Below, one piece after another: positions 2,600 to 49,059 of a stretch of 64,000 nt of DNA. The notes below the pieces were generated by a model, which was given only the letters and a program-made list of their open reading frames with translations, was not told the DNA's origin and ran no database searches. The translations under genes and the position numbers were made by a program. Each line of letters begins with the position of its first letter. Within the stretch, counting starts at the first letter, position 1. The DNA comes from Azolla caroliniana (Eukaryota; Plantae; Polypodiophyta), in assembly GCA_043228905.1 (NCBI GenBank), contig JBHGNT010000007.1, positions 1,798,001 through 1,862,000 of the forward strand, read 5' to 3'.

Positions 2600-3037
2600 T
2601 GTCATGAGATGACAAGACTCGAACCCATGACCTTATGGTATATGGGTCGAGCTCTTAACCATCTCACCATCTATTGTAATTCATAGAATATTATTTTCAT
2701 TTATGTTTTATTATAAGAAAGTAATGTATATTCCAGATTTCTCTGGAACATTCTAGAAGCTTCAGGATTATTCCTGAGAACACTATAAAAGAAGGCACTA
2801 AGCATTATGTTGAACCAAATTGGTTCAACACCAGTCTTAAGCCTCTTAGTCGATTTGTACTTATCTTTCATATAATATAAGAGCTGTTGTCATCATCCTA
2901 TTTCTCTCTCTCTCTCCTCTTCTCACTTCCTCTCTCTCGGGAATCTTACGCAGTCCCGTCCTCTTAGTACTAATAGTACTAATAGTACTACTCTTCTTAG
3001 TACTAATTCCATCTCTGTTTTAGTACTATTCCCGACA
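2600..3037 (+). repeat. 5' LTR of chromovirus
   Basis: TGTCATGAG...CCCGACA; TATAAAA at 2784; direct repeat of 7845-8282. Confidence 0.97.
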
Positions 3038-3039
3038 GT

Positions 3040-3052
3040 TTGAACCAATTTG
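3040..3052 (+). promoter_or_regulatory. Non-tRNA primer-binding site (putative self-priming)
   Basis: TTGAACCAATTTG is the exact reverse complement of LTR 2816-2828 and lacks the TGG of a tRNA PBS. Confidence 0.75.
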
Positions 3053-3106
3053 TTCCTCTAGCCTACTTGTCACTCTCCCTCATCTTCCTACCCTTTCCCC
3101 TATACT

Positions 3107-4264: not shown

Positions 4265-4306
4265 GTCCAGCCAAAATAGGAGCCATTTGGTTGGACAGCA
4301 GCCCTA
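4252..4306 (+). promoter_or_regulatory. -1 programmed ribosomal frameshift signal
   Basis: G_TTA_AAC heptamer at 4252-4258 in the gag/pol overlap, a 6-nt spacer, then an 11-bp stem 4265-4275/4286-4296. Confidence 0.75.
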
Positions 4307-7300
4307 GATCTGTACAGCCCATTAGTGGTTCCATTCCTTCCAAGCAAGTTAGCAATGTGTTCCTAGCCCAAGTCATTGTTAGTACTAAAAGTACTCCCCC
4401 AGTACCCGTCCTAGCACTTTTAGATTCCGGAGCTAATTCCTGTTTCATGGATCGAAATTTTGCCCAAGCTTCTCAGATATCCTTAAGAAAACTTCCTTGT
4501 CCCGCATCTGTAGTGGTCATTGATGGTCGTCCCATTGCTTCCGGGAATATTGTAGAAGAATCAGAACCCATTCAAGTTGTCCTAGGTAGTTTTGTGTGTA
4601 TAATATCATTTAATATAATTAGTAGTCCAGAGCATCCCATTGTCCTAGGATTACCTTGGCTTGAGTTACATAATCCAGCCATAGATTGGAGAACAAGAGA
4701 AGTCCGATATCGACCACCCCAAGAATCAACTCGCCGAGTTTCGACCATTTCACTCCATCAACTACGCGAAGAAGGACCCAAGGAGGCAATGTTCCTATTT
4801 TCCATATCAGTACATCCTTCCAACACTATTAAGAAGGACTCCTCAGTACAACTTCCGGCAAAATATCATCCTTATGCCGATGTATTTGACAAGGTAAAAG
4901 CCGGTACCCTTCCTCATCACCGTCCCTATGACTGTCCCATCGATTTACAACCAGGAACCGAGCCACCATGGGGACCAATTTACAACCTGTCACCCACCGA
5001 GTTAGAAGTCCTTCGAGCCTACATAGAGGAGAACTTGGCAAGCGGGTTCATCCGTCATTCGAAATCTCCGGCCGGTGCACCCATCTTCTTTGTCAAGAAG
5101 AAAGATGGCTCACTTCGTCTTGTCGTTGATTACCGCGGATTAAATAAAGTCACCATCCGGAATAGGTATGCACTTCCTCTTATATCAAGTCTTTTAGAGC
5201 GAGTTAATGGTGCCAAGTTTTTTACTAAAATCGACCTACGCGGAGCGTATAATCTCGTGCGGATCCGACCGGGAGATGAGTGGAAGACCGCTTTTCGCAC
5301 GCGGTATGGGCATTTTGAGTATACTGTTATGCCGTTTGGCCTAACCAATGCACCCGCAGTCTTCCAACACATGGCAAATGATATATTCAGAGACCTCTTG
5401 GATATCTGTTTGATCATTTATCTGGATGATCTGTTGATTTATTCGAAGACCCAGGAAGAGCACGACTCTCATGTACTATTAGTACTAAAGCGACTCCGCG
5501 AGAATGGTCTTTATGCCAAGCTAGAAAAATGTAGCTTTGACTGCAAGCAAGTGGAATTTCTAGGCTACGTCATCTCCTCAAAGGGCATCGCCATGGATCC
5601 AGCTAAGATCCAAACTGTACTAGAGTGGCAAATTCCACGGTCGGTACGAGATGTACAATGTTTTCTAGGTTTTGCTAACTTCTACCGTAAGTTTATACAG
5701 GATTACTCGAAGATTATTTTACCTCTCACACAACTTACGAAGAAGGGCCAAGCATTTCTTTGGTCCATTGAAGCAGATATGGCTTTTCGGCATCTTAAGA
5801 AAGCCTTTACATCAGCACCGATTCTAGCTCATGTGGATACAAGCAAACCATTCATCATGGAGGCCGACGCATCAGATTTCGCCCTCGGTAGCATCCTTTC
5901 TCAACAAGGTGATAAAGAAGAGTTGCATCCGGTGGCTTTTCATTCGCGCAAATTCGATGTCGCAGAAATCAACTACGAAATACATGACAAGGAGTTATTA
6001 GCCATCGTGGATTCATTTGTACAATGGCGGCATTTCTTAGAGGGCTCTCCACATCAGGTCATTGTCTTCAGCGATCATAAAAATCTTGCTTATTTTCAGA
6101 ACGCTCGCGTACTAAATCGACGGCAAGCTCGGTGGGCGCAATTCCTCACGCGTTTCGACTTCAAAATCACATATCGACCGGGGAAGCAGCAAGGAAAAGC
6201 AGATGCACTATCACGACGTTCATATCTTGCACCTCGTCCTGGTGAAGCAACATTTGATAATCAAAAGCAAGTAATCTTGGGACCAACACGATTGCACACG
6301 ACGCGGATTTTTCACACCCCGATGGATTCACGGATTACCGATGACATACGTGCAACCTTGAAGACAGATAGTTTTGCTCAAGACATCCTGGCGCACATTG
6401 ATACTTCTCGGGCATCCTGTTCTCAGTCTCAACAACCAGGTATTGACTACCGACAATTCGAATATCATGATGGTTTGTTATTCTTTAAAAAGCGCGTATA
6501 TGTCCCCGATTGCTCCTGTCGCCTTCAAATTGTCCAACATTGTCACGACACCCATACGGCGGGACATTTCGGTAGTACTAAGACGTTGGAGCTAGTGCAG
6601 CGATCTTTTTGGTGGCCCCACATGCGCCGTTTTGTCGACGACTACGTTCGGACCTGTGATGCTTGCTGCCGAGCAAAGATGCCACGACACCATCCATATG
6701 GCTTGTTGGAACCTTTACCAATTCCAAGTAAGCCATGGCAGTCTATTTGTCTTGATTTTATCACAGATCTGCCGGTCTCGAAAGGGTTCGATGCTATCCT
6801 AACCGTCGTCGATCGATATACGAAGATGGCACATTTTGTGCCATGTACTAAAGCCATCACTAGCGAGGAAACCGCCGCTCTTGTTATGCGTGAGGTTTTT
6901 CGGCATCATGGCCTCCCAGACAGTATTATCAGTGACCGAGGCCCGCAATTTGTCTCCAAATTTTGGCAGCATCTCTTCAAGATGCTCAAGGTCTCCTGCA
7001 ACCTCTCCTCCGGCTACCATCCTCAAACCGACGGACAGGCGGAACGAACAAACCAAACGCTGGAGCAATATCTCCGGTGTTTCCTGAGTTATCAACAGGA
7101 CGATTGGGTCGAGATTCTCCACTTTGCGGAGTTTGCGTATAATAATGCTATTCACTCCTCGACTCGGGTCTCCCCATTTTTCGCTTATACCGGTTTCCAT
7201 CCTCGCTGGTCGGTGATCGACACTCCGGAGCTACCTACCAACCCTCGTGCCGAGGATCATTTGGAGAGGCTACGCAAGATCCAGATGGATCTCTCTACTC

Positions 7301-7833
7301 ACCTTCGTCATGCTCAACACACACAGAAGACTTATGCGGATCGTCATCGGATTCCCTCCTCTTTTGCCATCGGAGATCGAGTATGGCTCTTACGTCGTCA
7401 CATCAAGACTACTCGACCGTGCGACAAGTTGGATTATCGACGACTCGGTCCTTTCCGTATTACGGGGAAGATTAATGATGTCACCTTCCGCCTTGATCTC
7501 CCTCCGCAGCTTCAGATACATCCGGTTTTCCATTGTTCTCTTCTTGAACCTTATAAAGCAAACACCATTCCCGATCGTGTGACACCACCGCCGCCCCCAC
7601 TGGAGTTGGACGCCGGCCCGGAGTATGAAGTTGCTGCCATCCTCGATTCCAAACTTGTTCGCAACAAACTCTATTACTTGGTCGATTGGCTCGGTTATAG
7701 TCCGAGTGAACGTACTTGGGAACCCGTCGAGAATGTTGCCAATGCACAAGATCTTCTTGCTGATTTCCACCGAAAGTATCCGGACAAACCCGGTCCGCAA
7801 GTAGCGCTGACTCGTTCCACTCGTCGTCTTTAA
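4261..7833 (+). CDS. pol: Pol: protease-RT-RNase H-integrase-chromodomain (reached by -1 frameshift)
   Basis: LLDSGA, YLDD, EADASD, HHCC zinc finger, DDE core, GPF motif, chromodomain EYEV...YLVDWLGY...TWEP. The frame has no ATG at its start. Confidence 0.95.
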   Translation: MSPAKIGAIWLDSSPRSVQPISGSIPSKQVSNVFLAQVIVSTKSTPPVPVLALLDSGANSCFMDRNFAQASQISLRKLPCPASVVVIDGRPIASGNIVEESEPIQVVLGSFVCIISFNIISSPEHPIVLGLPWLELHNPAIDWRTREVRYRPPQESTRRVSTISLHQLREEGPKEAMFLFSISVHPSNTIKKDSSVQLPAKYHPYADVFDKVKAGTLPHHRPYDCPIDLQPGTEPPWGPIYNLSPTELEVLRAYIEENLASGFIRHSKSPAGAPIFFVKKKDGSLRLVVDYRGLNKVTIRNRYALPLISSLLERVNGAKFFTKIDLRGAYNLVRIRPGDEWKTAFRTRYGHFEYTVMPFGLTNAPAVFQHMANDIFRDLLDICLIIYLDDLLIYSKTQEEHDSHVLLVLKRLRENGLYAKLEKCSFDCKQVEFLGYVISSKGIAMDPAKIQTVLEWQIPRSVRDVQCFLGFANFYRKFIQDYSKIILPLTQLTKKGQAFLWSIEADMAFRHLKKAFTSAPILAHVDTSKPFIMEADASDFALGSILSQQGDKEELHPVAFHSRKFDVAEINYEIHDKELLAIVDSFVQWRHFLEGSPHQVIVFSDHKNLAYFQNARVLNRRQARWAQFLTRFDFKITYRPGKQQGKADALSRRSYLAPRPGEATFDNQKQVILGPTRLHTTRIFHTPMDSRITDDIRATLKTDSFAQDILAHIDTSRASCSQSQQPGIDYRQFEYHDGLLFFKKRVYVPDCSCRLQIVQHCHDTHTAGHFGSTKTLELVQRSFWWPHMRRFVDDYVRTCDACCRAKMPRHHPYGLLEPLPIPSKPWQSICLDFITDLPVSKGFDAILTVVDRYTKMAHFVPCTKAITSEETAALVMREVFRHHGLPDSIISDRGPQFVSKFWQHLFKMLKVSCNLSSGYHPQTDGQAERTNQTLEQYLRCFLSYQQDDWVEILHFAEFAYNNAIHSSTRVSPFFAYTGFHPRWSVIDTPELPTNPRAEDHLERLRKIQMDLSTHLRHAQHTQKTYADRHRIPSSFAIGDRVWLLRRHIKTTRPCDKLDYRRLGPFRITGKINDVTFRLDLPPQLQIHPVFHCSLLEPYKANTIPDRVTPPPPPLELDAGPEYEVAAILDSKLVRNKLYYLVDWLGYSPSERTWEPVENVANAQDLLADFHRKYPDKPGPQVALTRSTRRL

Positions 7834-7844
7834 GGGGGAGATAG
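7832..7844 (+). promoter_or_regulatory. Polypurine tract
   Basis: AAGGGGGAGATAG immediately before the 3' LTR. Confidence 0.9.
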
Positions 7845-8282
7845 TGTCATGAGATGACAAGACTCGAACCCATGACCTTATGGTATATGGGTCGAGCTCT
7901 TAACCATCTCACCATCTATTGTAATTCATAGAATATTATTTTCATTTATGTTTTATTATAAGAAAGTAATGTATATTCCAGATTTCTCTGGAACATTCTA
8001 GAAGCTTCAGGATTATTCCTGAGAACACTATAAAAGAAGGCACTAAGCATTATGTTGAACCAAATTGGTTCAACACCAGTCTTAAGCCTCTTAGTCGATT
8101 TGTACTTATCTTTCATATAATATAAGAGCTGTTGTCATCATCCTATTTCTCTCTCTCTCTCCTCTTCTCACTTCCTCTCTCTCGGGAATCTTACGCAGTC
8201 CCGTCCTCTTAGTACTAATAGTACTAATAGTACTACTCTTCTTAGTACTAATTCCATCTCTGTTTTAGTACTATTCCCGACA
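7845..8282 (+). repeat. 3' LTR of chromovirus
   Basis: Identical by eye to 2600-3037. Confidence 0.97.
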
Positions 8283-11323: not shown

Positions 11324-11416
11324 TGTAAAAAGTAGTGTGCGGAAGGAAGTATGAAGGCCGAACAGGAGGAAGAAAATTCAGGTTCAATGGAGAGCTTGAG
11401 CTTACGCAGTATACTC

Positions 11417-11475
<59 letters not shown>

Positions 11476-11805
11476 CACACGAACTATATTCAACGACCCA
11501 ATCTCTATTCACCACACTCTATACATATGTGTGTTCAATGAACACTTTTATACAAGTCCTAGAAGGATTGACCGAAGTACTGACAGTACTTCAATACTCA
11601 TTAAGAGCTCCTATACTAACTCCCAAATATATTCCTCACGGAATATCTTTCCTAATGGCCTCCCGGTTTACGCACTCAGCCTAACCGATCGGTCCCAACC
11701 GATCCGGTCCTCAGCTTCTTCAGCCGATCCGGCCGATGTTGAGCTTGTCTCTCAACACTCCCCCTGAAGCTCAACTTGAGGCTCTTCGGGATCTTCGGGC
11801 TCACA
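11324..11805 (-). repeat. 3' LTR of copia 1 (contains a (GA)n microsatellite)
   Basis: TGTAAAA...CTCACA on +; direct repeat of 16652-17116. Confidence 0.92.
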
Positions 11806-12024
11806 GCTCCGGTTTCTCCTGGCTTCACGCCTCGCTCGCGCTCCACGGCCTGTTTGACTCCACGCGCTTCGACCCTTCCAGTTGGCTTGTCTGCTCATGT
11901 GGCCCTTATCAGCTCTTCTGTTGTTGCGGTGTTGACGTTTCTCCTGCTGCCTTTTCTTCCGCTTGGGCCTCGGTTGATTCAGCGTATCTGAATCAAACAT
12001 CCGAACTGACTCGACTACCTCCGA

Positions 12025-15000
12025 TCAGTTTTCGCTCTCGTCCAAGTTGGTTGTCTCCAACTCGTCTTCGGTCTTCTTGCCCTCGGTGGCGTCATCTTCC
12101 CCATGCGTGGTTAGCTTCGGCTCTCTCCTTCGGTTGCTCCCCTTCTGTCCGCTTCCGGACTTTTCCGCGGGTCCGCCCTCGACTTCTTCAGCCGATCCGA
12201 AGTCCAACTTGACAACCGAGTCAACCGACTCGGTGTCGCGGTCTCTGCTCCTTTCCTGCTGCCTTGCTTGGTCGTTCGGGACTATTCTCCCCCTCAAGTT
12301 TGGCACGTCGAGGTGATGCAATCCGAGCGCACCTGAGAATTGCCGCAACTTGTCCAGACCAAGAGGCTTGGTGAAGATGTCGGCAGTCTGCCGATCCGTC
12401 GGAACGTACTGAAGTTCGACTTCACCGGAAAGGACATGCTCACGGAAGAAATGGTAGTGCACCTCAATGTGCTTGGTCCGTGCGTGGAAAACGGGGTTTT
12501 TCGCAAGCTGGATGTTGTTGAGGTTGTCGCAGTCGATCGTCGTTGGATCTGACACCTCCTCTTGCAGGTCCCTAAGCAGCCGCTTCAACCATATGGCTTC
12601 GCATGTCGCGACAACCGCTCCTCGGTACTCAGATTCGGTGCTCGACAATGCAACTGTCGGCTACTTCTTACTGCTCCACGTGATCACGACACTCCCGAGG
12701 GAGAACGCGTATCCGGACGTGGATCGGCGATCGGCGGTGTTGCCAGCCCAATCAGCATCGGTGTAGCCGACTAATTGCGCGGTTGCACCGGTTCGATATA
12801 GCAGTCCCCGGTCCTTAGTGTCGTTGACATACCGAAGTATGCGTTGCACACACTGGAGGTGCTCCTCGGTAGGTCACGCTATGAACTGATTGATCACTCC
12901 GACCGGATAACTGAGGTCGGGTCGGGTGATGGTCAAGTATATGAGGGTTCCAACAATTTGTCGGAACCTCGTCAGGTCGCATACCTTTCCCGTATCGGGA
13001 CGAAGCTTGACGGTTCTGTCCAGAGGAGTCGAAACGGACTTACAGTTGGCCATCCCAAATTTGAAGAGCATACTCAGCACGTAATGACGTTGGCTGATCA
13101 ATATGCCTTCGGGGGTACGGATCACTTCGATCCCGAGGAAGTAATGAAGGTCCCCCAGATCCTTCATGTCGAACGATGCCACAAGCTGGAGCTTCACGCG
13201 GTCGATTTCACCTAGGTCGGCGCCGGTGATGACCAAGTCATCAACATATAGTAAAATACTAACCAGTCCGAGTCGACCTTTCCGGATGAACAGGGAAGAG
13301 TCTGATTTTGACGTGACGACGCCCATCCGACGTAGTTGTTGCGTGATCTTCGCGTTCCAGGCACGCGGAGCTTGCTTCAGTCCGTAAAGGGACTTCTTCA
13401 GTCTGCATATTGCCAAGGAGTTCGTTCCAGAGTGAAATCCGGGGGGTTGTACCATGTACACCTGTTCCTCAAGGTCACCTTGCAGGAACGCATTCTTTAC
13501 ATCCATCTGATGTAAGTGCCACCCCTTCACTGCAGCTACTGCGAGCAAAACACGGACGGTCGTCATTTTCGCGACCGGCGCAAACGTCTCATTGTAGTCG
13601 ATGCCGTGTTTCTGCGCGTAGCCCTTTGCCACTAGCCGAGCCTTGTACCGGTTGACCGAGCCATCGGTGTTGTACTTGACCTTGTACACCCACCTACACC
13701 CGATCGGTTTTACCCCTGTTGGTGCATCAACCAGGTCCCAGGTCTCGTTCTCCGCCAATGCGTGCATCTCTTCCTCCATCGCGGCACGCCAATTCGCGTC
13801 TTTAGCCGCTTCTTCGTAGCTCTCCGGCTCACGCACTTCTGCTACACGGGTCATGTACGCATAATGATGCGCCATGTACTCGTTGTATCCGAACCGCAAA
13901 ACAGGATTCTTCTGGCGGGTAGATCGGCGTAGTCTCACATTAGCCGATGTCGAGGCCTTCTCGGTCGACGCGGTCTTCATCTTTAAAGACCCGTCACCGG
14001 TTCCCTTGGAGTCGAACTCGCGTCGGTCTGACTTGTTCTTATCCGTGCCGGAATCCGACACCTTCTTCTTCCCTTTCTCTTTGCGCGTAAGCCATCTCCT
14101 CGGCTTCCTGCGCGGGGAATGCACGGCCGAGTCTCCACTACTCGCCGGCTCTTCATTGGACTGGTCGTATCGACTCAGTCGTCCAATCGGTCTACTTAAG
14201 CGGAGTGAAATCAGACTCTCTTCGCGGGTCTCGATTTCGGGCTCATCCGGAGGCATCTCGGCTTCGCTGACCTCATCGTCAGAACACGGATTGGAATCGG
14301 GGTTCGGAGTCGGGGGCTGGTACCAGGACACGGACTCGTCAACCACAACGTCGCGGCTAACACGCGCTTGTTTGGTGCGAGGGTTATAGCACTTATAACC
14401 CTTCTGCTCGTTCGAGTAACCGACCAAGATGCATTTCTCGGCCTTTGCGTCCAGCTTCCTCCTTTTCTCCTTCGGTACATGCACATACGCAATGCTACCG
14501 AACACCCTCAAGTGTCGCAAGTTCGGCTTCGTTCCGAAATATAGCTCGTGCGCCGACACTTTGTCTCCGATCTGGTTCTGGATGTATACCGCAGTCCTTA
14601 CCGCCTCGGCCCAGTAGAACTTGGGCAAGCTCTTCTCCTCCAGCATTGTCCATGCCACTTTCACAACTGATCGATTCTTCCTCTCGGCCACGCCGTTATG
14701 CTCCGGCGTGTATCTACAACTGAATTCGCGACGAATTCCCATTTGTTGTAGGTAACCATTGAATTGACCGGAAAAGTACTCTTTCCCGCCATCCGACCGC
14801 AAGCACTTGATCTTTCATCCCGTTTCCGTTTCCACGAACCCTTTGAGGTCCCGGAAACAGTCGAAGACTTCGCTCTTCCTCTCAATGAGGTAGATCCACG
14901 TGTGCCGCGTGTGGTCGTCAATGAAGGAGACGAAATATCGGCTCCCTCCAAGACTAACGTTTTGTGTCGGCCCCCATACATCGGAGTGTATAAGGTCGAG

Positions 15001-16582
15001 CTTGTTCCGGCTCTGGTTTCGCTCGTTGGGGAAGGGAAGTCGGTGTTGCTTCCCAAGCTGGCAGGCTTCACAAATTTGTGCCTTTCGGCCACTAAATTTG
15101 GGCAATCCGAACACTACATGTTTCGTTTGCAGATCTTGAAGCCGCTAGTAGTTGACGTGGCCTATCCGCTTGTGCCACAAGTCGATGTCCGACTCGGATT
15201 TTTTATCCCTTCGCGAACATTGCGGTGCCGCCGTCAGTGGAGGAACATCCTCCCGTCTCTACGCCCTTGCGCAATCACACGGCCTTCTTCCTCAATGAAG
15301 CACCGGAGGTGTGTAAACCGAACCTCCATCCCTTGGTCGACGATCTGTCCGACCGAGACCAAGTTCTTCGTGATTGTCGGAACGTGCAGCACGTTCATGA
15401 GTTTCCCTTTCTGCCCGACATGGCTAAGGGGAAATCTCCGACATTCGTGATCAGATGCGGAGTGTCGTCTCCTGTTGCGACTACTCCAGGTTGTATCGGT
15501 TTTTCAAGGTACGAGAACCACTCCTTATGGCTCGTCATGTGGTTTGACGCGTCGGAGTCTACATACCACACCTCGTCTGATCTCGGGGTGGTCTGTTTCA
15601 TTGAGTTTGCTTCGTGTCTCGTCACGAAGGCAGACCCTTCTCCGGCTCTCCCGGAGTCTTCGGCGTAGTGCGATCGCTGCCGATTTCCCTTTTCGGTATG
15701 TCCGGAGTCGTTTCCGGAACTGGTTCTCTCCGAATCGGTGCGCTTCTTCTAGCACTCACTTTCCCTGTGGCCTTTCTTGCCACAGTACCAGCACTCCGCA
15801 ATGGCCTTCCCTTGCCGGTTCTCATCGCTTCGACTCCCCCTGTTTCCGGAGGGTCCGGAGTTGCTGTCGGCATCACTTCGGTGCCTTCTTCCTTGATCTC
15901 GTCGGTCGCCTCCATTGCGCGCCGACTTGCCTCGTCCTCCATGTCCACGGGGCCTAACTCCCTCCGTGTACAGCATTCTGTTGTTGGTATGCGTGCTTGT
16001 AGACGCACCCGCGTGGTTCTCCTCTACCAGGAGCATTGATTGTAAGTCGAAAAAGGACGGTGTATTCTCCCGGGTACACACAGCCGTTCGGAACGCTCCG
16101 AACTTCGACGCCAAACCTCCGAGACAGATCTAGACCATCTCGCTCTCCTCGATGTTCACCTCTATGGAGGCGAGGGAGTCACAGATATCCTTGATCTTCG
16201 AGGTATAGTCCGCCACTGACAAGTCGCGTTGTCGTAGGTTGCTCAACTCCTGTTGGAGCCGAAGCTTCCTGGCTTTGGTGCTCGCGGCGAAAATCTTCTT
16301 CAGATTTTCCCACGCACCCTTCGGCGTCTTTGCATCCCGAACATAGCTCAATAGTTGTTCGCCCACACACGACGCGAAGCAGTATAATACCCTGCTCGCC
16401 GATTGCTCCCACGACGGGAAGCCTCTGTGTGTCGATTCGGGTGCCGCGTCATTAGCTCCTTCGACATAACTCCAGTGGCCGTGCCCGAGCAGGTACTGGT
16501 GCATCTTGTAGGACCAAGACGCGTAGTTGGTTCTGTCGAGCTTCTCTGTTGGAAGCGAGCTCGCCATGCCTCTATCCATCAT
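12025..16582 (-). pseudogene. Copia gag-pol polyprotein broken by stops and frameshifts
   Basis: Gag (NYASWSYKM; CWYCGKKGHRESEC), protease (WYVDSDAS), integrase (HSDVWGP, RSDGGKEY), RT (QMDVKNAFL, LLYVDD) and RNase H (YTDADWAG, TKHIEV) are spread over at least seven ORF fragments. Confidence 0.93.
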
Positions 16583-16651
16583 TCTTCTTGTTCTTCTTCG
16601 TCAAGCTATGTCGGCTGCAGAGAGGTTCTCAACCCTCGCGCTTTGATACCA

Positions 16652-17116
16652 TGTAAAAGGTAGCGTGCGGAAGGAAGTATGAAGGCCGATTAGGAGGAAG
16701 AAAACTCAGGTTCAATGGAGAGCTTGAGCTTACGCAGTATACTCGGGAGAGACAGAGAGAGTGAGAGAGAGAGAGAGAGAAAACACACGAACTATATTCA
16801 ACAACGACCCAATCTCTATTCACCACACTCTATACATATGTGTGTTCAATGAACACTTTTATACAAGTCCTAGAAGGACTGACCGAAGTACTGACACTAC
16901 TTCAATACTCATTAAGAGCTCCTACACTAACTCCCAAATATATTCCTCACGGAATATCTTTCCTAATGGCCTCCCGGTTTATGCACTCGGCCTAACCGAT
17001 CGGTCCCAACCGATCCGGTCCTCAGCTTCTTCAGCCGATCCGGCCGATGTTGAGCTTGTCTCTCAACACTCCCCCTCAAGCTCAACTTGAGGCTCTTCGA
17101 GATCTTCGGGCTCATA
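16652..17116 (-). repeat. 5' LTR of copia 1
   Basis: Adjacent to the PBS; the terminal CA reads TA on +; followed by TSD GAAGT. Confidence 0.92.
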
Positions 17117-19922: not shown

Positions 19923-20781
19923 TGTTAGGGATTGACGCTTTCAAAAACCTTCACCTCTCGGCCACAACCGAGGAAACACGAATCAATGCAGCAGAAAATC
20001 AAAAACACAGAGAGAGACTCGAATGCACAGGGTTTAGCGTGGAAAACCCTAGACGGGAAAAACCACGGGAGTGCAAGACTCCAACTATCACTATACGCAG
20101 GGAATGTACAATGGCGAGCTGCAAGGCGACGACCTTGAGCTCGCTGTCCTCGCCACAGGCGGCGGTATTACACAGAGGCGTCGACCTCTTCCTTTCTCTC
20201 TCTCTCACTCTCTCTCTCGGCTGCTCTCACTTCACTCCCTCTAAGTGGAAAACAGAAAAATGAGCAACAACTACAAAATTGTTTGCCCTAAGTCATATTT
20301 ATACACAAATGACTTTCGGGCTATTTACAAATATAGCCTCGAGGGCCCTTGGCAAACATATTCACAAATATGTCCCCGCAACAACTACAAAACTGTTTGC
20401 CCTAAGTCATATTTATACACAAATGACTTTCGGTCTATTTACAAATATAGCCTCGAGGGCCCTTGGCAAACATATTCACAAATATGTCCCCGCATCCGGA
20501 TCTCTCTCCGGGTACATTCGTCATCCGGCTCCGTAGCCGGGGTCTTCATCATCCGGATCCGAAACCGGGTCTTCATCATCCGGTTCCGATACCGGGTACT
20601 TCATCATCCGGATCCGAAACCGGGTCTTCATCATCCGGCTCCGTAGCCGGGGTCTTCATCATCCGGATCCGAAACCGGGTCTTCATCATCCGGTTCCGAT
20701 ACCGGGTACTCCTCATTCGGGTCTTCATTCCCGATTCCCGGACATCTGACCATCCCATCCGGAGGGACCGTAATCCCAACA
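19923..20781 (-). repeat. 3' LTR of copia 2 (859 bp)
   Basis: Contains a 114-bp tandem duplication (20264-20491) and seven 27/28-bp CCGG-rich units from 20521. Confidence 0.95.
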
Positions 20782-20791
20782 AACTCCCCCT

Positions 20792-23700
20792 TCACTTCGG
20801 CATGGGATGTCTTTCCAGTCCGACCCTCTTCCGGCACGCTTCCAGCTTGTCGGGTGTGAGCACTTTGGTCAGCATATCTGACCCGTTCTCGTCCGTGTGG
20901 ATCTTCGTCAGCACGAACTCCTGGTCTTCTATCCTTTCCCGGATCCAGTGATATCTTCGCTGGATGTGCTTCGTCCGGGAGTGATAGGCCGCGTTCTTCG
21001 CAAGGTGGATGGCACTCTGACTGTCGCAGTAGAGTCGGTACTCCTCCTGCCGGATACCGAGCTCTCTAATGAAGTCCTTCATCCATATTATTTCCTTGCC
21101 GGCTTCAACAGCCGCCATGTACTCCGCCTCCGTGGTTGACAACGCAACCGTCTTCTGCAGCCTCGACTGCCACGAAACAACTCCCCCTGCATACGTCATC
21201 ACATACCCTGATGTGGACCGGCTGGTATCTGCATCAGCCGACATATCCGAATCGGTAAAGCCGTCGAGTTCGGGCTTACCGGAGCCGAATCGGAGGCACA
21301 CGTTTGCCGTGCCCTTCAGGTATCGGAGTATCCACTTGGCCGCGTTCCAGTGCTCTTTGCCGGGATTGCTCATGTACCGGCTCACCACTCCGACTGCATA
21401 TCCTATGTCCGGTCTTGTACACACCATTGCGTACATCAAGCTTCCGACGGCAGAGGCATATGGTACTTTCATCATGTCCTCCTTCTCAGCCTTTGTCTTG
21501 GGGCTTTGCTTGCTGGACAACTTGCAGTTTGTCGGGAGGGTTGACCCGACCGGTCTTGCTTCCGACATGTTGAACCGGTGAAGCACCTTTGTCACGTACT
21601 TCTCCTGTGACAGCCACAACTGCTTCTTCTTCCGGTCCCGGATGATGTGCATCCCTAGTATTTGCCTCGCCGGACCCAGGTCCTTCATTGAGAAGGTTCG
21701 GTGAAGCGCTTTCTTCAGCATCCGTATCTTGACCTGGTCCCGTCCGACGATCAACATGTCGTCCACGTACAGGAGGAGTATTAGAAAGTCTCCTCCTTCG
21801 AACTTCTTCACAAACACGCAGTGATCGGACTGCGTTTTGTGGTACCCTTCGTCGGTCATGAAAGAGTCGAACTTCCGGTACCATTGCCGGGGAGCCTGCT
21901 TCAGTCCGTAAAGGCTCTTCTTCAACCGGCATACCAGGTGCTCCTTCCCTTTCTTCTCGAATCCTTCCGGTTGCTGCATGTAGATCTCTTCTTCGAGGTC
22001 ACTGTGAAGGAATGCCGTCTTCACGTCCATCTGTTCTACCTCGAGGTCCATGCTTGCCGCTATGCTCAGCACCGTCCGGATGGAGGTCATCTTCACTACC
22101 GGGGCAAATATCTCGTCGAAGTTGACGCCCTTCTTCTGCTGGAACCCCTTCACCACGATCCTGGCTTTGTATCTCGGGGGTTTTCCGGCATCTCCCGGTT
22201 TCAGCTTGAACACCCACTTGTTTCGAAGTGCCCGCTTTCCTTTCGGCAACTCCACAAGTTCATATGTGTGGTTCTCATGCAGGGAATCCATCTCCTCCTG
22301 CATGGCACTTAACCACCTGCGGCTATGGGTGTCAAGCTTTGCTTCTTCAAAACTCTCCGGCTCCCCCTCGTCGGTTAGCAACACGTGCTCTGGTTCCGGA
22401 AATCTCCGGGGGGCCCTTCTCTCTCTTAGAGGATATCTCCGTTCCGGAGCTTCGGTAACCGGCTCCTCCGTTTCCTCTTCATCCGAATCCATTTCGGGAT
22501 CGGGGCCGGTTCCGGTATCAGTTTCATCTTCCTCAGCCGGTTCTGTTTCTTCACCGTCTTCGGCCGGATCCTCGAGTGCTAACCGGTCCCTTGCCGGTCG
22601 GGACTGCTCCTCGTAGAGTTGATCCTCACCGGTCGACTTGGAGCTCTTCATCTTCTTCTCCGACTCCCAGTCGGCGAGTGTCTTGTCCTCCATGAAGATG
22701 ATATCACGACTCCGGAATATCTTTTTGTCGACCGGGTCCCATACTCGGTAGCCGAACTCGTCATCGCCGTAACCGAGGAATATGCATGGCCGGGTCTTTG
22801 GATCTAGCTTTCCTCTCCGGTCCTTTGCCACATGCACATATGCGAGACACCCGAACACCTTCAGATGCCGGTAGGATACTTCCCTACCGGTCCACACTCT
22901 CTGCGGCGTGTCTCCGTCCAAAGGTACTGAGGGTGATTTGTTTATCACGTATGTCGCCGTCGACATTGCCTCAGCCCAAAACCCCTTGGGTAATTTCGCA
23001 TGCGCCAGCATACTCCGGACCCTCTCCATTATGGTCCGGTTCATCCTCTCGGCCAGCCCGTTCAGTTCCGACGTCTTCGGCACAGTAAACTCGAGCCGGA
23101 TTCCCTTCGAGCGACAGTACTCCTCGAACTGCCCCCGGTATTCCCCTCCGTTATCCGCTCGTATCGCTTTCAGCTTCTTGCCGGATTCCCTTTCCACTCT
23201 CGCGTGGAGTTCTTTGAAGACGCACAACACTTGGTCCTTTGTCTTCAACGGTGCCGTCCACAGCTTCCGGCTGTGGTCATCAATGAATGTCACGAAGTAC
23301 TGGGCTCCGCCATGTGACTTCGTTTCTACTTGACACACGTCAGTGTGCACCAACTCCAATGGTGCGCTACGTCTCGTCGGTGGCCTTGAGTGGAAGGAGG
23401 TTCGGTTCTGCTTACCGGCCAGGCAATCGGTGCACTTCTCCAGGTGCACATGCTTCACTGGAATAAGGTTGTCTTCTGCAAGCCTCTTCATCCCCTTCTC
23501 ACTCATGTGGCACAGTCTCTTGTGCCACAGCTCACCGGCAGTGTCGGCTGCCACGTTCAACTCCTCCGGACACAACCAGGCATTCATAAGGTACAGTGTG
23601 TTGACTTTCCGGGCCCGAGCCACTATCAGGCTCCCCTTGCTGAACTTCATTACGCAGTTCCGGATGCTACCTGTGTAGCCTTCATCGTCTAGCCTCCCGG

Positions 23701-24865
23701 CCGAAATCAGGTTCAATCGAACCTCCGGAACGTGTCGGACATCCTTCAGCAACATTTTGCATCCGGTCGAGGTTGTCAACCACACGTCTCCTATGCCGGC
23801 AATCCGGCACGTACCTTCATTTCCCATCCGAACACAGCCATGCTCACCGGCTGCGTAGGATGAGAAGTATCTTCTTTCCGGGGTCAGGTGGAACGACGCT
23901 CCGGAATCGACCACCCAGGTAGTCTCATCGCCGGCAATGTTTAGTTCACCTTCTTCGGTGATGAGCATGATCTCCTCTTCACTTGCCGCGAGTGCCGTCG
24001 TTCCTTTCCGGTCCTGCCTTCTCCGATCCGAACCGTTCCGGTCCGTGGCTCCCCGGTAAGCACCGTTCCGTTCCGAAGACTTCTTCGAATCGGTGTCGTC
24101 GGCTCCGTTGTCTTTTCGGTAATGCCGACAATTCTTTCGGATGTGCCCCGGCTTCCCACAGTGGAAGCATGTGGGCCTTCCTCTTGACTGCGACCGGGTC
24201 CCCGACTTCGCCCGTCTTTGCGGACTCCAGTTCCGTTGTCTTCCCCGATCCGATTCGGTAAGCAGCATCTTCGGATCGGAGGCCGGTTCTTTATCTCTCC
24301 GACGCGCTTCTTCGTTCAAAATGCTTGTCTTTACCGTTTGTAGGGACAAGTTATCTTCGGTGCAGGAGGTGCTGAGAGTCACCACCAAGTTCTCCCAGCT
24401 TTCCGGCAATGTACACATCAGCATGATGGCTTGCATTGCATCCTCCAACGGGAACTTGATCGCAGCAAGCTGGTTCACGAATCCCATGAACGTGCTTACG
24501 TGTTCCACCATACTCTCGCCGTCCTGGTACTTGAGGTTCACTATCTTCCTCATCAGGGAGGTCCGGTTCAACGCATTCTTCCTCTCGTAGAGGCCCGACA
24601 GCTTCTGCCACATCTCATATGCGTTGGTGTCGTTCGCCACATGTTGTAGAACGCTCACGTCGACGTATTGCCGAATGGTTGCAACGGCTTTCCGGTTCAG
24701 AAGCCTCCATTCCGTCTCAAGTACCCCCTTGGGTATTTCCGACCTGTCGATCGGTTCATACAGGTCCCGAACAATGAGCAGATCCTCCATCTTTATCTTC
24801 CAGTCGGCGTAGTTCTGCGCATTCAGCACCATCATCCCCGGCTGCCCGCTGCTGCCGCCTTCCAT
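20792..24865 (-). CDS. Copia Gag-Pol polyprotein, intact
   Basis: First ATG at 24865; CFHCGKPGHIRKNC, WVVDSGAS, HTDVC/RADNGGEY, QMDVKTAFL, LLYVDD, FTDSD, TKHI. Confidence 0.95.
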   Translation of the reverse strand: MEGGSSGQPGMMVLNAQNYADWKIKMEDLLIVRDLYEPIDRSEIPKGVLETEWRLLNRKAVATIRQYVDVSVLQHVANDTNAYEMWQKLSGLYERKNALNRTSLMRKIVNLKYQDGESMVEHVSTFMGFVNQLAAIKFPLEDAMQAIMLMCTLPESWENLVVTLSTSCTEDNLSLQTVKTSILNEEARRRDKEPASDPKMLLTESDRGRQRNWSPQRRAKSGTRSQSRGRPTCFHCGKPGHIRKNCRHYRKDNGADDTDSKKSSERNGAYRGATDRNGSDRRRQDRKGTTALAASEEEIMLITEEGELNIAGDETTWVVDSGASFHLTPERRYFSSYAAGEHGCVRMGNEGTCRIAGIGDVWLTTSTGCKMLLKDVRHVPEVRLNLISAGRLDDEGYTGSIRNCVMKFSKGSLIVARARKVNTLYLMNAWLCPEELNVAADTAGELWHKRLCHMSEKGMKRLAEDNLIPVKHVHLEKCTDCLAGKQNRTSFHSRPPTRRSAPLELVHTDVCQVETKSHGGAQYFVTFIDDHSRKLWTAPLKTKDQVLCVFKELHARVERESGKKLKAIRADNGGEYRGQFEEYCRSKGIRLEFTVPKTSELNGLAERMNRTIMERVRSMLAHAKLPKGFWAEAMSTATYVINKSPSVPLDGDTPQRVWTGREVSYRHLKVFGCLAYVHVAKDRRGKLDPKTRPCIFLGYGDDEFGYRVWDPVDKKIFRSRDIIFMEDKTLADWESEKKMKSSKSTGEDQLYEEQSRPARDRLALEDPAEDGEETEPAEEDETDTGTGPDPEMDSDEEETEEPVTEAPERRYPLRERRAPRRFPEPEHVLLTDEGEPESFEEAKLDTHSRRWLSAMQEEMDSLHENHTYELVELPKGKRALRNKWVFKLKPGDAGKPPRYKARIVVKGFQQKKGVNFDEIFAPVVKMTSIRTVLSIAASMDLEVEQMDVKTAFLHSDLEEEIYMQQPEGFEKKGKEHLVCRLKKSLYGLKQAPRQWYRKFDSFMTDEGYHKTQSDHCVFVKKFEGGDFLILLLYVDDMLIVGRDQVKIRMLKKALHRTFSMKDLGPARQILGMHIIRDRKKKQLWLSQEKYVTKVLHRFNMSEARPVGSTLPTNCKLSSKQSPKTKAEKEDMMKVPYASAVGSLMYAMVCTRPDIGYAVGVVSRYMSNPGKEHWNAAKWILRYLKGTANVCLRFGSGKPELDGFTDSDMSADADTSRSTSGYVMTYAGGVVSWQSRLQKTVALSTTEAEYMAAVEAGKEIIWMKDFIRELGIRQEEYRLYCDSQSAIHLAKNAAYHSRTKHIQRRYHWIRERIEDQEFVLTKIHTDENGSDMLTKVLTPDKLEACRKRVGLERHPMPK

Positions 24866-24896
24866 TTTTTGCACTGCAGTCGCTCTGATACCAGAT

Positions 24897-25696
24897 TGTT
24901 AGGGATTGACGCTTTCAAAAACCTTCACCTCTCGGCCACAACCGAGGAAACACGAATCAATGCAGCAGAAAATCGAAAACACAGAGAGAGACTCGAATGC
25001 ACAGGGTTTAGCGTGGAAAACCCTAGACGGGAAAAACCACGGGAGTGCAAGACTCCAACTATCACTATACGCAGGGAATGTACAATGGCGAGCTGCAAGG
25101 CGACGACCTTGAGCTCGCTGTCCTCGCCACAGGCGGCGGTATTACACAGAGGCGTCGACCTCTTCCTTTCTCTCTCTCTCACTCTCTCTCTCGGCTGCTC
25201 TCACTTCGCTCCCTCTAAGTGGAAAACAGAAAAATGAGCAACAACTACAAAACTGTTTGCCCTAAGTCATATTTATACACAAATGACTTTCGGGCTATTT
25301 ACAAATATAGCCTCGAGGGCCCTTGGCAAACATATTCACAAATATGTCCCCGCATCCGGATCTCTCTCCGGGTAAATTCGTCATCCGGCTCCGTAGCCGG
25401 GGTCTTCATCATCCGGATCCGAAACCGGGTCTTCATCATCCGGTTCCGATACCGGGTACTTCATCATCCGGATCCGAAACCGGGTCTTCATCATCCGGCT
25501 CCGTAGCCGGGGTCTTCATCATCCGGATCCGAAACCGGGTCTTCATCATCCGGTTCCGATACCGGGTACTTCATCATCCGGATCCGAAACCGGGTCTTCA
25601 TCATCCGGTTCCGATACCGGGTACTCCTCATTCGGGTCTTCATTCCCGATTCCCGGACATCTGACCATCCCATCCGGAGGGACCGTAATCCCAACA
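24897..25696 (-). repeat. 5' LTR of copia 2 (800 bp)
   Basis: One 114-bp unit and nine 27/28-bp units from 25381. Confidence 0.95.
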
Positions 25697-25967: not shown

Positions 25968-26400
25968 TGCCATATGTCAAGATTCGAACTCTTGACATAA
26001 CCATGTTATAATTGAGTGTTATGTGTTAACCACACATCTACCATATAATCATGTATATACTTCCTCATTGTAGGTTTTAGCTAGCATCATGTGCATAATT
26101 TCTCCCTTGTATTATTAACACTTGGCACATGCATGCGTACCTACTGCCTACATGCTCTATTGTATCACATGCGTGCAACAGGTATGCATGCCACTTAGTA
26201 TAAATAGTTGAGTTCACCTTGAAGGAATTCAAGGTGAACAACGCCAATCATGGACATATCAATCTAGTATTCTCATTTCGCCCATCTTCTCTCCTTAATC
26301 TTCATCTCTATCTTTATGCTCTTGTGTCATTCCGTCATCACTCCGTCGTAGCCTCATCATCCGTGCTCTGTCTTAGTCCACACTTGGTGTGTCCGTGACA
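25968..26400 (+). mobile_element. Probable solo LTR of a related gypsy family
   Basis: TGCCAT...GTGACA ends, ~433 bp. The start resembles the chromovirus LTR (CAAGATTCGAAC versus CAAGACTCGAAC). TATAAATA at 26199 is followed by a 12-bp hairpin. No TSD found. Confidence 0.6.
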
Positions 26401-28032
26401 CCATACATTCTATAATCAACTCCAACTCGGAGCAACACCGCAAATTTCCACAATGAACTCTACGTCAGGGCATTGTCTTAAATTTTTGTAAAAAACCCAA
26501 CATATCTTCCATTTCTATCGTATCATTTTCTCTTTGTTTTTCTAATTATTCATACCTCTCCCTTGCAATGTTCAAACAAACCAATTTATCCATTAGAGTT
26601 ATTGAGCTTAAGGTGAAATGTAATATACCTACCTTTTATCATGCATGGCTATATCCAATAAGTAGATTAGAGAGAAAATGTTGGTGACTCATTTAATTTA
26701 AGGAAAATGCATTGAGAAATAAGAATGTGACTCTTGGACATATAGGTAAAAATCATTATAAGAAAGGAAGGATTTCATTGGTTGTGAGGTTCATCAATGA
26801 TGTTGATTTCTGGATTTAGATCAAAGTTGGGATAAATTTGTTATAGATTCTACGAGAACAAAATAGTCAGTTCATCATTTGCTTGTTCTCGCATGTCCTC
26901 ATCATAGAATTGATATTTTAATATGGCAAACAATCAATGTGTCGACCTTTATTAAGCATAGGCATATTAAACATGTGATGATCTATTTATTTTGACTTTT
27001 GTTGATCCCACATATTGTCCCTCCTTTACACCGAAGAACTCATGGCAATCTTCGACACCGAGGTTTCAAGTGAGATTCACTAGACATCGGATGCTCATAG
27101 GAAAAGACAAGGACCCGAGGAAATCGTACATTTATATATTTGCTCACTTTTGATTTAGTTAATAATCAAGCTAAGGAAATGATTGTCACGGTCTTCAATG
27201 CATGTTACATATTAGCATATGGCCTCTTAATGTGCCCATGATGACGCTACCTTTTTTATATCAGAACATGTTGAGTGAGTTTTTTAGTGATTATCTAGCC
27301 CTAGAGGTCCATCTGGTTTCACAAATCAGCTATGTTCATCATGAAGCTTCATTCTTTTGGGGGGCATTGGCATTAACTAATAATATTGAGTGGCAACTCT
27401 TATGCTCAATAATAAAATGTTATCTGTTTTTCTTTATCTTGATTTCATCATTTACTACACCAATTTTAAAATATCAAATAATTGAAACCCCTTTCAATAA
27501 ATATGATATGCCAACATTTGTGGGACATACTTACAACCCGTGCACTCTTCGTGCTATGTTAACATTTTTAGGATTTTCTTTGGTTTTAATGTGTGCATGT
27601 GCGTTGTTAAAGTAAAGCTTGGTTTAGAGATTTCTCATTTTAGTGCTTTGCGTGGTTCAAAGTGTGTTGAAACTCATAGTACAATTGTAATGCCAACATG
27701 TTTGGAGTTTTGCAATGTTCGGTAACATGTTTTCAATGCTTACGTGATTCAAAGTGTGTTGCAACTATTGAAGTACAATTCTAATGTTCGAAGGCATTGT
27801 AATTCAAAATAAAGTCACAAAATGCACAAAAAACCAAGGTGATTAAAGTTCTTTCAATCAAGAGCTTTGAAGACAAGTTCTAAGCATATTCATTATACTT
27901 TTGGGACCTTGAAAACTGGAGCGGAAAACCACATGTTTCGATTGATTTACATTGAATATATTGCGTACACCATAACTACCGAAAGGAATTTGTATACACG
28001 CATTGTCGAGGTAGTTGTGGCTTGTGCGGCGA

Positions 28033-43319: not shown

Positions 43320-46300
43320 TTATTTAACTTTCTGGAAGACACCCGAAAAAGTAGGTATCTTATTGAGTAGTTTCAATGCCTCTTCAGCTTTCTTCCGTGT
43401 GTTAGGGTTACCATATTTGAAGGCTTCTACCAATGCTGTATGCATATTGGCATCATTCGAGATGGTACGTGCCATGTCATCATTTTGCAAAATACGCTCC
43501 ACTACAGTAACCGCATGCTGCCGGAGTAGCTCCGTTTTGTGCTCTCTCATGATAGTCAGGATGGGTTTGATAGCATCTGAACTACTCAAAATTCCAATGC
43601 CCCCTTCAAGGTCGTTTGCATCCACTACTAAAGTTGAAAGAGCTTTTAGAGATGCTTCAACTACCCCCACATTTGGATGATCAAGGCACGATACAAGCGG
43701 GCGCACAGCCTGAGCATCAACAAGGCAGAATGTTTCCTTTGCAGAGCATAACCCTGAATGAACACTACATAATCCTGGTGGTTTTTCTGGTTTACTTTGG
43801 AACCATGAACAACACCCCTGTTTTATTTTTATTTCAGGAACCACAGATAGCCTCTTTGAATAAACTGATAGATTTCCTAATGCTATGGCGCTGAATTGTT
43901 GAACCTCATCTAAACCACCTGTTTTCAGAAGGTTTGTGAAAACATATGTGAGGTTGTAATCTTGGGCGAGTTGTACCAGATCTGTTTTACCATCAGATAT
44001 ATAAGTAAACCTTAACAGAACTCCCACCAAGCCTACCTTATAGTCACTTATGAATCGCCCTGCACCTATTCGGACAACTCCTTGGCGCAAATCATCAAGT
44101 TTTTTTATAATAATCGGCAATGCTCCTTGATCCAATAAAGCACGAGTTAAATGCACATCTTCGATCGGAAGCTTTGCCATTAGCCTTGATGCAGTTGCTT
44201 GCTCTTCACTGACACCATCCATTTCAAGCAGCTTTACCATAGTGTTTAACTGACCCATGGCAGAACGAAGGCCATCAGAAATCTCTTGTCTCATACGATC
44301 ACAAAGATGATACAACAACTTAATTGAGTTTGCTCGCAACTCTTTCTGTGGCACATCTAGAAACTGTATCAGGCTCAACATAGCACCTGAACTTTTTATC
44401 GCCACCACTACTCTATCAGCAGCTAAAGAAGAAGACGCAAGAGCCACTAGGACTTGAAGAAGCTTCGCCTCAATGGTAGGGCCAGTATTGCAAACCAAAT
44501 GTAGTAGATTATGCAAGATAGGTTCTGAAATAAGAGTATTGCCATCGCCATCTACCTTAACATCTTCCAAGTCCACACCTGAGCTTACTACATTAGCAAG
44601 GATTGTGGCTGAAACTTCTTTAAGTTTCATAGGTAGCTGATTCACGCCCACTACAAATAGATCCTTTACTAATGGACCAAGAACACCTGCTTTAGCCAAA
44701 ACTTGCCCATTGCTCTCAAGCTCCGAAAGTTGTCTTAGGCACTTCAATGCAGCCTCTCTACTTGCCATATAACCACCCTCAAGCATTCCTACTAATGCTT
44801 TTCCTCCCACTTCTGCGGCGTTAGCTTTTCCTTCCTTACTCAGCACTAAATCACAAAGCAAGGTGGCCATCTCCAGGCGAGTTTCTTCACCACCTATTTG
44901 TATAAAAAAGGTAACTTTTAGACCTTTGTATTCTATATAGTTCTTCCTCATTTAGTGAATACAGTGAAGTGAAATCTCAATTTTTGGAAGCATATTTAGA
45001 ATCTGATACTTTGGAATGACCATTATTTTGGTTATTCTCAAGTCACGAAAATAGAAATGAGCAAAGACAATTGTTATTCCAACGTCTAACAAATACTAGA
45101 TCCTAACATCTTAGTAACCAAGGAGGAATACAGGAATGTTCATTACCAATGTTGGCTCTTTCTTTTTCTGTTGACTAATGCTTCTGTGACATTTTTAATG
45201 ACAATATCTGAGAGAGTGTTTCAGATAAGTATTTGTATTGGCACAAAGGACAGACGGTTTTTCAGTGATTTTCTGGAAGAATAAAGGTATGAATGCAAAC
45301 ATACATATTGTGAGCAGAACAAAAGAAGAAAGAGAAAGCTTGTAATAGAGACGGGAATACAGAAAGTTGGCTCTCTACAGTGAATGAGATGATTTAGACT
45401 AATAATTACAGAAGGCTATACAGGTCTTCTACTTATATCAATAACAACCAGAAATCAAAACTATATGAACTTGTCTGTAGTTCATCCATCCATATAACTT
45501 AAGTCACTTCATAAAATCTATTAACCGCCAACTTCATCGCATGTCTTCCGCCTAGATAGTTGGATTGGGACAGTGTATTCACAAGTGATTGTTTACAAGA
45601 CAACAACCCCTCAAGCAATTATGGCCCAAACCAAATTTCCACCACAACCTTGATACCAGAGACTTTGTGAAAAGGATATACAAACAGTGCTCCATCATAG
45701 TGGTCCGTAATTTCTACATGTTTTCATGTTGAGATGGTAGATCAGATTCCTTGTGATGTACCTCTACTGACATATCCACTTTTATAAGTTCCTGCTTCAT
45801 TGGAACTTCTAGTTCCTGTAGAATTCTCTGAACTAGTACTGCTTCAGATTTCAAGAAACAATGAACCAAGATCCAAATAACAAACAAGATATAGGCATTC
45901 CAAAACAATAAGATGAGATGTCCACAGAGCGAAGGTGCAGATTTCATGCAAGATGATTCAAATTTCAATATTATGATTCTTGAAAAGGGAAGGGGAAAAC
46001 AGATGCAAGCCTAAAACTATCACTCGGCAAACACATGCAATATTTTCTTTTCAATGGACCAGTTCAGTAAAAAGATCATGGGTTCATTCTCAAAAAAGAG
46101 AACCAACAAACCAAGTTTTAATCAAAAGCCAAAATTTCACAGAGAATTGCTACTCACCAAAATTTAATGAACAACGTATGCCATGTATTAGTTAGATATT
46201 ACAGCGTTTAATGTCGCATACATTAGCACTTCCCTAAAGCTTATGAGAGCATTCATGGACAGATCGACTCATGTTATACCTCTCCCACATATGTACTATT

Positions 46301-48329: not shown

Positions 48330-49059
48330 TTGGATAGATGTGTTTTTCTCTCACTGTTACTAGTGGAAAGGAGACCTTGAAATTTTGCGATCTGCCTCTT
48401 TTGATTCTCTCTCTCTCTCTATCTATCTACCGGTATCCTTGCTCATAAACCCTATTTGAGATCTCTCTTTCTTTAATCTATCCTTTACCTCTCTCCTCTC
48501 TCTTTTTCTTCCCCCCTTCTCCCTTTCTCTCTGTAGTTACTCACCTAAAATGGAGAAATTTCAATCCCACCCCTTTTAGAACAGCGCCTAAAATCCTAAT
48601 CATTCTGCTTGACCAAGAGGAACAACGGAGAAAAAGAGCAAGGTTCTTGCCAAGAACCTTGAATTTGAAGGCTCAGCAGGGGATTTGCAGAACAATGAGA
48701 CCCATATCGGTGCTCTTCATATGATTATGATGACTGCTATTACACTTTGACAAGGATCCATGCCAGCGCAACAGAAAGAAAAAGATGAATGACATTAGGA
48801 GAAGACGCCTAAAATGAGGGAGAAGGAATCGAACCTGTGAGGATGGATTCATTCATTCATCAATCCATCTATTGTTCATGAGTTGAATAGCCAAAGAATG
48901 ATAGACAAACAGAGAGACAGAGAGAAACAGAGTATTGATTTCCTGGCAAATCTCTTTCTTCTTATAATTTATTGAGGGTTGGGAGAATTGTCAAAATCAC
49001 GAGCCTTTTGGTCCTACCATAGGATTGGTTCCCTGGGACTTGTCCTTGACTTTTGTCCG

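Follow-up and report, generated by a model that had tools for sequence, protein, structure and literature searches.

A solo LTR in Azolla caroliniana from a probable Tcn1-like chromovirus derivative, with signs of self-priming and an outward-facing A/B-box module

The window, by which we mean the whole 64-kb stretch of Azolla caroliniana DNA analysed here, contains a host gene with U-box and ARM-repeat exons (the plant U-box ligase type), a young chromodomain gypsy element sitting in a LINE, two Copia elements with near-identical LTRs, one of them with a 1368-aa frame, and a 426-bp solo LTR (Table 1). ARAGORN finds no tRNA genes in the 64 kb, and a loose-pattern scan finds no tRNA-like A/B module in the LTRs of either Copia element. 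As an insertion the solo LTR is ordinary, and it exemplifies only weakly the A/B module that is the main subject of this report. The first-pass annotation had placed its boxes, TATA box and 12-bp hairpin where we find them. The segment that it delimited as an LTR at 25968–26400 is indeed one, as its TG...CA ends, target site duplication (TSD) and paired copies attest, but the LTR begins at 25975, and other genome copies have the identical start.

Table 1. Features of the solo LTR, of the 2600 element used for comparison, and of their surroundings (window positions).
Feature	Position	Strand	Remark
Left TSD, CCATA	25970–25974	+	same 5-mer at 26401–26405
426-bp solo LTR (TGTCA...TGACA), putative non-autonomous Tcn1-like chromovirus derivative	25975–26400	+	genome copies
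8-bp terminal stem, B box in loop	25975–25997		23/23 identical in autonomous partner
B box of antisense tRNA-like module, GTTCGAATC	25981–25989	-	exact in 40/51 copies
Degenerate A box with D-loop-like TGGTTAA	26026–26040	-	15-mer; A box proper, TAGATGTGTGG, at 26030–26040
TATA box TATAAATA of putative Pol II promoter	26199–26206	+	32–33 nt before primer in the five families measured
Hairpin arm 1, U3 copy of PBS sequence	26212–26223	+	co-varies with primer in unrelated sequence types
Hairpin arm 2, overlapping predicted start site	26228–26239	+	
Predicted transcript nt 1–11, putative self-primer AAGGTGAACAA	26231–26241	+	complement of PBS of full-length copies
16-bp R-U5 stem, 5' strand, beside primer/PBS duplex	26247–26262	+	fold
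16-bp R-U5 stem, 3' strand, at U5 end	26384–26399	+	
Right TSD, CCATA	26401–26405	+	matches left TSD
2600 element, autonomous chromodomain gypsy (comparison)	2600–8282	+	own module, primer and PBS
2600 element, antisense B box	2616–2624	-	
2600 element, antisense A box	2659–2669	-	
2600 element, primer	2817–2828		
2600 element, PBS	3040–3051		
Copia element	11324–17101	-	
Copia element	19923–25642	-	
Host gene, U-box and ARM-repeat exons	43320–48350		

The best 40 of 1925 candidate genome matches to the LTR were scored and are 96–100% identical over its full length, and a 23-nt pattern of the LTR start has 586 matches genome-wide against 0 in the control. We collected 51 distinct copies with both flanks, and by these flanks they fall into 5' LTRs (19), 3' LTRs with a polypurine tract upstream, and solos. 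Fourteen paired full-length copies have LTR identities of 96.2–98.6%, with a perfect TSD in six. Uninterrupted full-length copies measure 1355–3564 bp, the one of 7137 bp containing a nested element; the interior inspected in one copy holds about 27 tandem copies of a 46-nt unit, and the non-autonomous copies end in a decayed chromodomain fragment, their 3' remnant being 81% identical to the autonomous partner described next.

That partner came to light through a metagenome locus (L147) in which the U3, the hairpin and the primer-binding site (PBS) of the solo family stand upstream of gag. With the L147 protein as query, at least 109 copies were scored in this genome, and all ten that were fetched are elements of about 5.3 kb with 353-bp LTRs, perfect 5-bp TSDs and the PBS of the solo family. 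The partner LTR is 82% identical to the solo LTR over LTR nt 1–280, and its pol is 53% identical to that of the 2600 element, aligned over residues 3–1192; the 2600 element itself has the order protease, RT, RNase H, integrase, Chromo, that is, gypsy order with a C-terminal chromodomain. The segment at 25975–26400 is therefore the solo LTR of a non-autonomous retrotransposon with an autonomous partner in the same genome. Given these full-length copies and a partner that shares U3, hairpin and PBS, the family is probably a derivative of a Tcn1-like chromovirus, “Tcn1-like” being used because our tree had no named Tcn1 references. A search of viral contigs found no relative.

Some copies of the family depart from the regular pattern. 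In four of the 14 paired copies (L017, L024, L029, L117) and in the solo L118 the TSD agrees in its first three bases only, and the last bases of the upstream flank are AA, the dinucleotide that separates polypurine tract and LTR; it looks as if an unprocessed cDNA end was retained in gap repair. L019 and L013/L116 are rearranged copies with inversion junctions, and in L019 the junction lies at the homology between PBS and hairpin, which suggests template switching there. A chromovirus-like LTR with another primer (L105, G000 C20 near 6474653) has an R region like that of the solo family, so that a U3/U5 chimera may underlie the 426-bp LTR; a matching alternative PBS start is present in L114.

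The first-pass annotation had predicted that full-length members carry a PBS matching the hairpin arm, and had proposed a genome search with a reading of the bases past the 5' LTRs as the check. The prediction was borne out: 16 of the 19 5' LTR copies and all ten partner copies are directly followed by GT-TTGTTCACCTT, complementary to the 11 nt that begin 32 nt past the TATA box. Among the 19, the PBS reads GTTTGTTCACCTTCC in 16, differs from it by one substitution in two and is another sequence in one; a TGG-type tRNA PBS follows none of them (0/19). What the PBS complements is the LTR itself, just past the promoter, rather than the 3' end of a tRNA, and an 11-nt PBS complement arose in 0 of 2000 dinucleotide shuffles of the LTR. 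Five distinct primer/PBS pairs are found among relatives, each complementary over 11–13 nt and with the PBS 2 nt past the LTR end, and the TATA-to-primer distance of the families measured (Table 1) is kept in L144 as well. Since primer and PBS co-vary over five sequence types, Tf1-type self-priming of reverse transcription is very likely.

It is highly probable, in our view, that Pol II initiates at 26231, a start placed by its distance from the TATA box, and that transcript nt 1–11 would anneal to the PBS adjoining the R-U5 stem and then be cut off as primer. When the RNA of the solo family is folded from the predicted +1, the primer/PBS duplex forms together with the 16-bp R-U5 stem (z=-5.3, 0/200 shuffles), a feature absent from the first-pass annotation that keeps 15–16 pairs in 48 of 50 scorable copies; the 2600 element folded from +1 likewise gives a primer/PBS duplex (z=-5.5). 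This is how Tf1 works, its first 11 bases annealing to the PBS before being cleaved off (PMC7175516, in the text accessible), and the accessible part of PMC6317226 already predicts self-priming for most Tcn1 elements, while that of a study of Selaginella SM-Tcn1 reports that no evidence of self-priming was found (PMC2864245). The earlier Tcn1 prediction was based on complementarity within single elements; five co-varying primer/PBS types, a start-site hairpin and a non-autonomous passenger now make it much firmer.

The start-site hairpin is the less certain part of this arrangement. A hairpin of at least 12 bp arose in 1 of 2000 shuffles of the LTR; start-site hairpins exceed the shuffled control (5%) in 9 of 14 families, with none in the C20 family and a mere 4-bp stem in the L111 family, and the upstream arm changes along with the primer across unrelated sequence types. 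We lean slightly towards a role confined to the RNA's 3' LTR, the one place in which the hairpin would form: there the U3 arm would fold over the second primer copy, mask it and keep it off the PBS. An alternative is that the hairpin reflects neutral perfection of a palindrome through template switching.

The antisense A/B module lies at the other end of U3. With the LTR start at 25975, the first base of the B box is LTR nt 7 (at first reported as 13 nt in), 6 nt from the U3 end, with the boxes pointing out of the element. The perfect 9-bp stem described around it has 8 bp inside the LTR, its outer A belonging to the TSD; covariation of this terminal stem across families is weak (663/20000), and an origin of the stem from a 7-nt inverted duplication is not established, since in the sister L146 these letters recur with the usual spacing. 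An antisense B box anywhere in the LTR was found in 9 of 2000 dinucleotide shuffles. The boxes prove less canonical than the first description had it: the B box is without the flanking G and C found in most tRNAs, and the combined A/B score is 20.4 in the solo family and 13.3 in the partner, whereas 49 tRNA genes of this genome score at least 27.0, with a median of 36.7, and the solo family has an A-to-B spacing of 42 where most other families have 34–36. ARAGORN and Rfam find no tRNA or other RNA family in the solo LTR or the 2600 LTR, with no tRNA match at E up to 10.

Stronger examples are abundant elsewhere. When the 2600 RT, whose segment is 100% identical in more than 100 genome copies, served as protein query against the genome, all the matches listed were of its own family (150/150 at 99–100%), so four regions of 200 kb were sampled instead; they were picked near known element copies and are probably repeat-rich. 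Over 864 kb, a loose A..B pattern has 52 matches against 0–4 in ten shuffles and 2 in reversed order. On inspection, 30 lie in chromoviral LTRs, nine in one LTR family that we call Phygy-like, seven in other LTR-like repeats, and six are chance-like; most module matches within the sampled regions sit in gypsy LTRs. A tight pattern, which misses the solo family, has 9,511 matches genome-wide against 53 in the control. With A/B profiles built from this genome's tRNA genes (best attainable p=0.01), an antisense module in U3 scores at that floor in 6 of the 7 chromovirus families that came from protein search only, and the solo family and its partner reach it too. The module is present in one of two non-chromoviral LTRs found by structure, an unbiased set, and in none of ten Copia LTRs. 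Most other non-chromoviral carriers were found through the motif itself and show presence, not frequency; several have a 4-bp NCGN TSD and a TGG-type PBS, with the box 111–691 nt into U3. These two traits are shared with the Phygy clade as the accessible text of PMC6317226 presents it, our label resting on the TSD motif and not on a reference tree; the solo LTR belongs elsewhere. Going by that text, Tcn1-like and Phygy-like elements in one genome would suggest a moss-like host.

Beyond this genome, 30 LTR starts were scored out of 79 metagenome loci, once near duplicates and loci whose LTR start could not be read had been set aside. Nine are positive, three weak and 18 negative, the last including all 13 at 39–44% protein identity; the source genomes may be closely related to this one. 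In a tree of 44 rows the closer group contains all the positives, as two clades, and three changes are needed. The module is decayed in L144 and L148 and negative in the sister pair L149/L159 and in L150, L152 and L153.

The first-pass annotation had proposed a lineage-wide system of box and hairpin, the box at the U3 end, conserved without sequence similarity. That the antisense box recurs without LTR-wide similarity holds good, as does the claim that the solo LTR fails to align with the 2600 LTR (best blastn E=0.27). The notion of a single system does not: the C20 family has the box without the hairpin, the L111 family has the box with its 4-bp stem, L144 keeps hairpin and self-primer and has lost the A box, L149/L159 bear on the same point, and the tRNA-primed Phygy-like LTRs also carry the module. 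The antisense A/B box is a module separate from the hairpin and self-primer. Nor is the position at the U3 end a shared architecture, being peculiar to the solo family (nt 7, against nt 12–64 in other chromovirus families); in the LTR of L117 the B box is at +140. What is uniform is orientation, since all LTR families in which the U3 module was located have it antisense, although with few independent captures this uniformity is not a statistical result.

The pattern of conservation points to the boxes themselves. Over 15 families mean identity is 0.75 in the variable loop and T arm, 0.34 in the anticodon arm and 0.32 downstream, and the A-to-B spacing is mostly 34–36, as in tRNA, though chromoviruses differ in how far the module lies from the LTR end (7 to 64 nt). 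Stem covariation over the 15 families was nil, and a folded tRNA mimic was rejected, T-stem pairing (841/2000) and anticodon-stem pairing (1626/2000) being at the shuffled level. Boxes conserved without the cloverleaf fit a TFIIIC site, or an internal promoter acting at the DNA level, rather than a folded tRNA. Binding of TFIIIC to the A/B boxes is accordingly our prediction, and a fairly probable one. TFIIIC would sit on the outer flank of the Pol II promoter; with the boxes antisense, TFIIIB would lie towards the promoter and any Pol III run-off would leave the element; the bound module would hold U3 open and form a barrier to spreading heterochromatin. That it keeps U3 open in this way we put forward tentatively, at somewhat less than an even chance, and a chromatin barrier for the LTR promoter is our best guess at what the module may do.

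Several facts count against this reading: the module is weak in the solo family, several relatives are without it, and TFIIIC does not obviously require the GGTC of the variable loop, which is also conserved. Some of these would be expected if the module were a tolerated relic, SINE or tRNA heads having been captured into U3 by template switching, with the antisense orientation alone harmless; its seeming conservation would then reflect recent capture and pairing with the LTR end. Exchange with a free repeat is in fact visible: one near relative of the partner, alike in hairpin and identical in primer, carries another module, which agrees at 62/72 nt with one head of a free SINE-like repeat, and the variable-loop part, GGTC included, complements the LTR end in chromoviruses (79/105 pairs). 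Yet boxes at 0.75 identity against 0.34 for the spacer are seen in one 13-member clade whose LTRs have otherwise diverged, and spacing is held over the whole range of LTR-end distances. Solo family and partner agree at 23/23 positions in LTR end and B box and 13/15 in the A box, against 127/158 in the remaining U3, and Phygy-like LTRs retain the module without LTR-end pairing. On balance we think a relic unlikely. The SINE-like repeat (L287–L294, G000 C1; also inside a C9-family LTR) is abundant, about 245 bp long, with two convergent tRNA-like heads, and lies in CT/GA microsatellites.

The fixed orientation is a further difficulty for a barrier. In the accessible text of PMC2040200, yeast tDNA barriers are orientation independent; they work either way round, so a barrier alone does not explain the orientation here. 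An action through RNA would explain it, outward Pol III transcription feeding self-limitation by small RNAs: 3' LTRs would yield antisense RNA covering the polypurine tract and the integrase end, and 5' and solo LTRs read-out into the flanks. The retention of both boxes at tRNA spacing agrees with this, as does a T4 run 92–93 nt beyond the B box in the 3' LTRs of the solo family and its partner. No Pol III terminator is conserved, however, the first T4 run lying at 1, 1, 23, 63, 92, 93 and 1369 nt in seven cases, and the benefit to the element is unclear; we regard this course as unlikely, though with a real chance of being right.

The module might also work within the genomic RNA, where a U3 complementary to the D and T loops of all tRNAs could anneal a packaged tRNA near the polypurine tract and so aid strand transfer or dimerisation. 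The tRNA-like motif in HIV-1 U3 and the bipartite PBS of Ty3 offer parallels. Orientation, tRNA spacing and variable-loop conservation would all be covered, and the Phygy-like carriers do have a tRNA-type PBS; but the chromoviral carriers self-prime and so have no attached primer tRNA to bridge the ends, the conserved positions are the universal promoter boxes and not isotype-specific sequence, and the best host tRNA matches are partial and differ by family. We consider this quite improbable.

We favour TFIIIC binding with a role as barrier or in opening the promoter over antisense Pol III RNA, a tolerated relic or tRNA annealing. Taken whole, the reading of the locus as a likely self-priming solo LTR with a separate, likely captured, backward A/B module serving as a TFIIIC barrier seems to us evenly poised between right and wrong. 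The broader proposal, that two gypsy lineages repeatedly captured tRNA or SINE heads, always outward, as portable TFIIIC barriers against silencing, is more doubtful.

Comparison with known systems, drawn from the accessible portions of the sources, places the two halves of the LTR differently. With the Tf1/Sushi group and the plant Tcn1 clade the family shares the 11-nt complementarity between predicted transcript 5' end and PBS (PMC6317226, PMC7175516, PMC4600332), the chromodomain integrase (in the partner and the 2600 element), the 5-bp TSD and the lack of a tRNA PBS. Unlike the elements in those descriptions, it has a U3 copy of the PBS as a hairpin over the start site and a tRNA-like U3 module, and, differing from the Tcn1 clade, a non-autonomous derivative sharing the primer/PBS pair with its partner. 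With Helenus/TRIMp3, Cassandra and Ajax (Kojima 2024, PMC10886601) it has in common the non-autonomous state and tRNA-derived A/B boxes in the LTR; in Helenus, too, boxes are conserved without a working tRNA and a SINE-capture origin has been proposed (PMC10886601). Helenus elements, however, are 311–1263 bp long and tRNA-primed, and their Pol III promoter is the one proposed to drive transcription (PMC10886601), whereas the solo family exceeds that size in its uninterrupted copies (1355–3564 bp), has a PBS complementary to its own LTR, and has antisense boxes pointing outward that coexist with a TATA promoter and occur in autonomous elements too. The same paper, in its accessible text, expects no long LTR sharing with autonomous partners, against the 82% over LTR nt 1–280 seen here; it mentions that “not a few” Repbase LTRs show tRNA similarity, TRIMs alone being analysed (PMC10886601).

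Precedents for barriers built on A/B boxes come from yeasts (PMC4502379, PMC2040200), and together with B2 SINE boundaries (PMC8136502) these resemble the present case in having A/B boxes at a promoter edge in repeat-rich chromatin; the yeast tDNA barriers act independently of orientation, and the barrier role here is a prediction. For plants, no such barrier has been described, according to the accessible text of PMC13578239. Our literature search, with most subscription papers and Repbase entries outside its scope, found no report of the antisense module for autonomous gypsy LTRs, nor of a start-site hairpin. The module matters more than the self-priming. Should TFIIIC bind the roughly 9,500 tight matches, retrotransposons would provide it with many more sites than the tRNA genes, and the question of plant tDNA-type barriers would become testable; if the broader proposal is true, thousands of Pol III-type sites would lie dispersed over the genome, and these would be the first tDNA-type barriers in plants.

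Two further arrangements of A/B modules were noted among the repeats. A 706-bp LTR (L102:7859–8564) and L306, both non-chromoviral, have two modules each, antisense before and sense after the TATA box, and both modules point away from the promoter. An A-rich repeat family (L297–L299) has tandem tRNA-like A/B modules about 160 nt apart.
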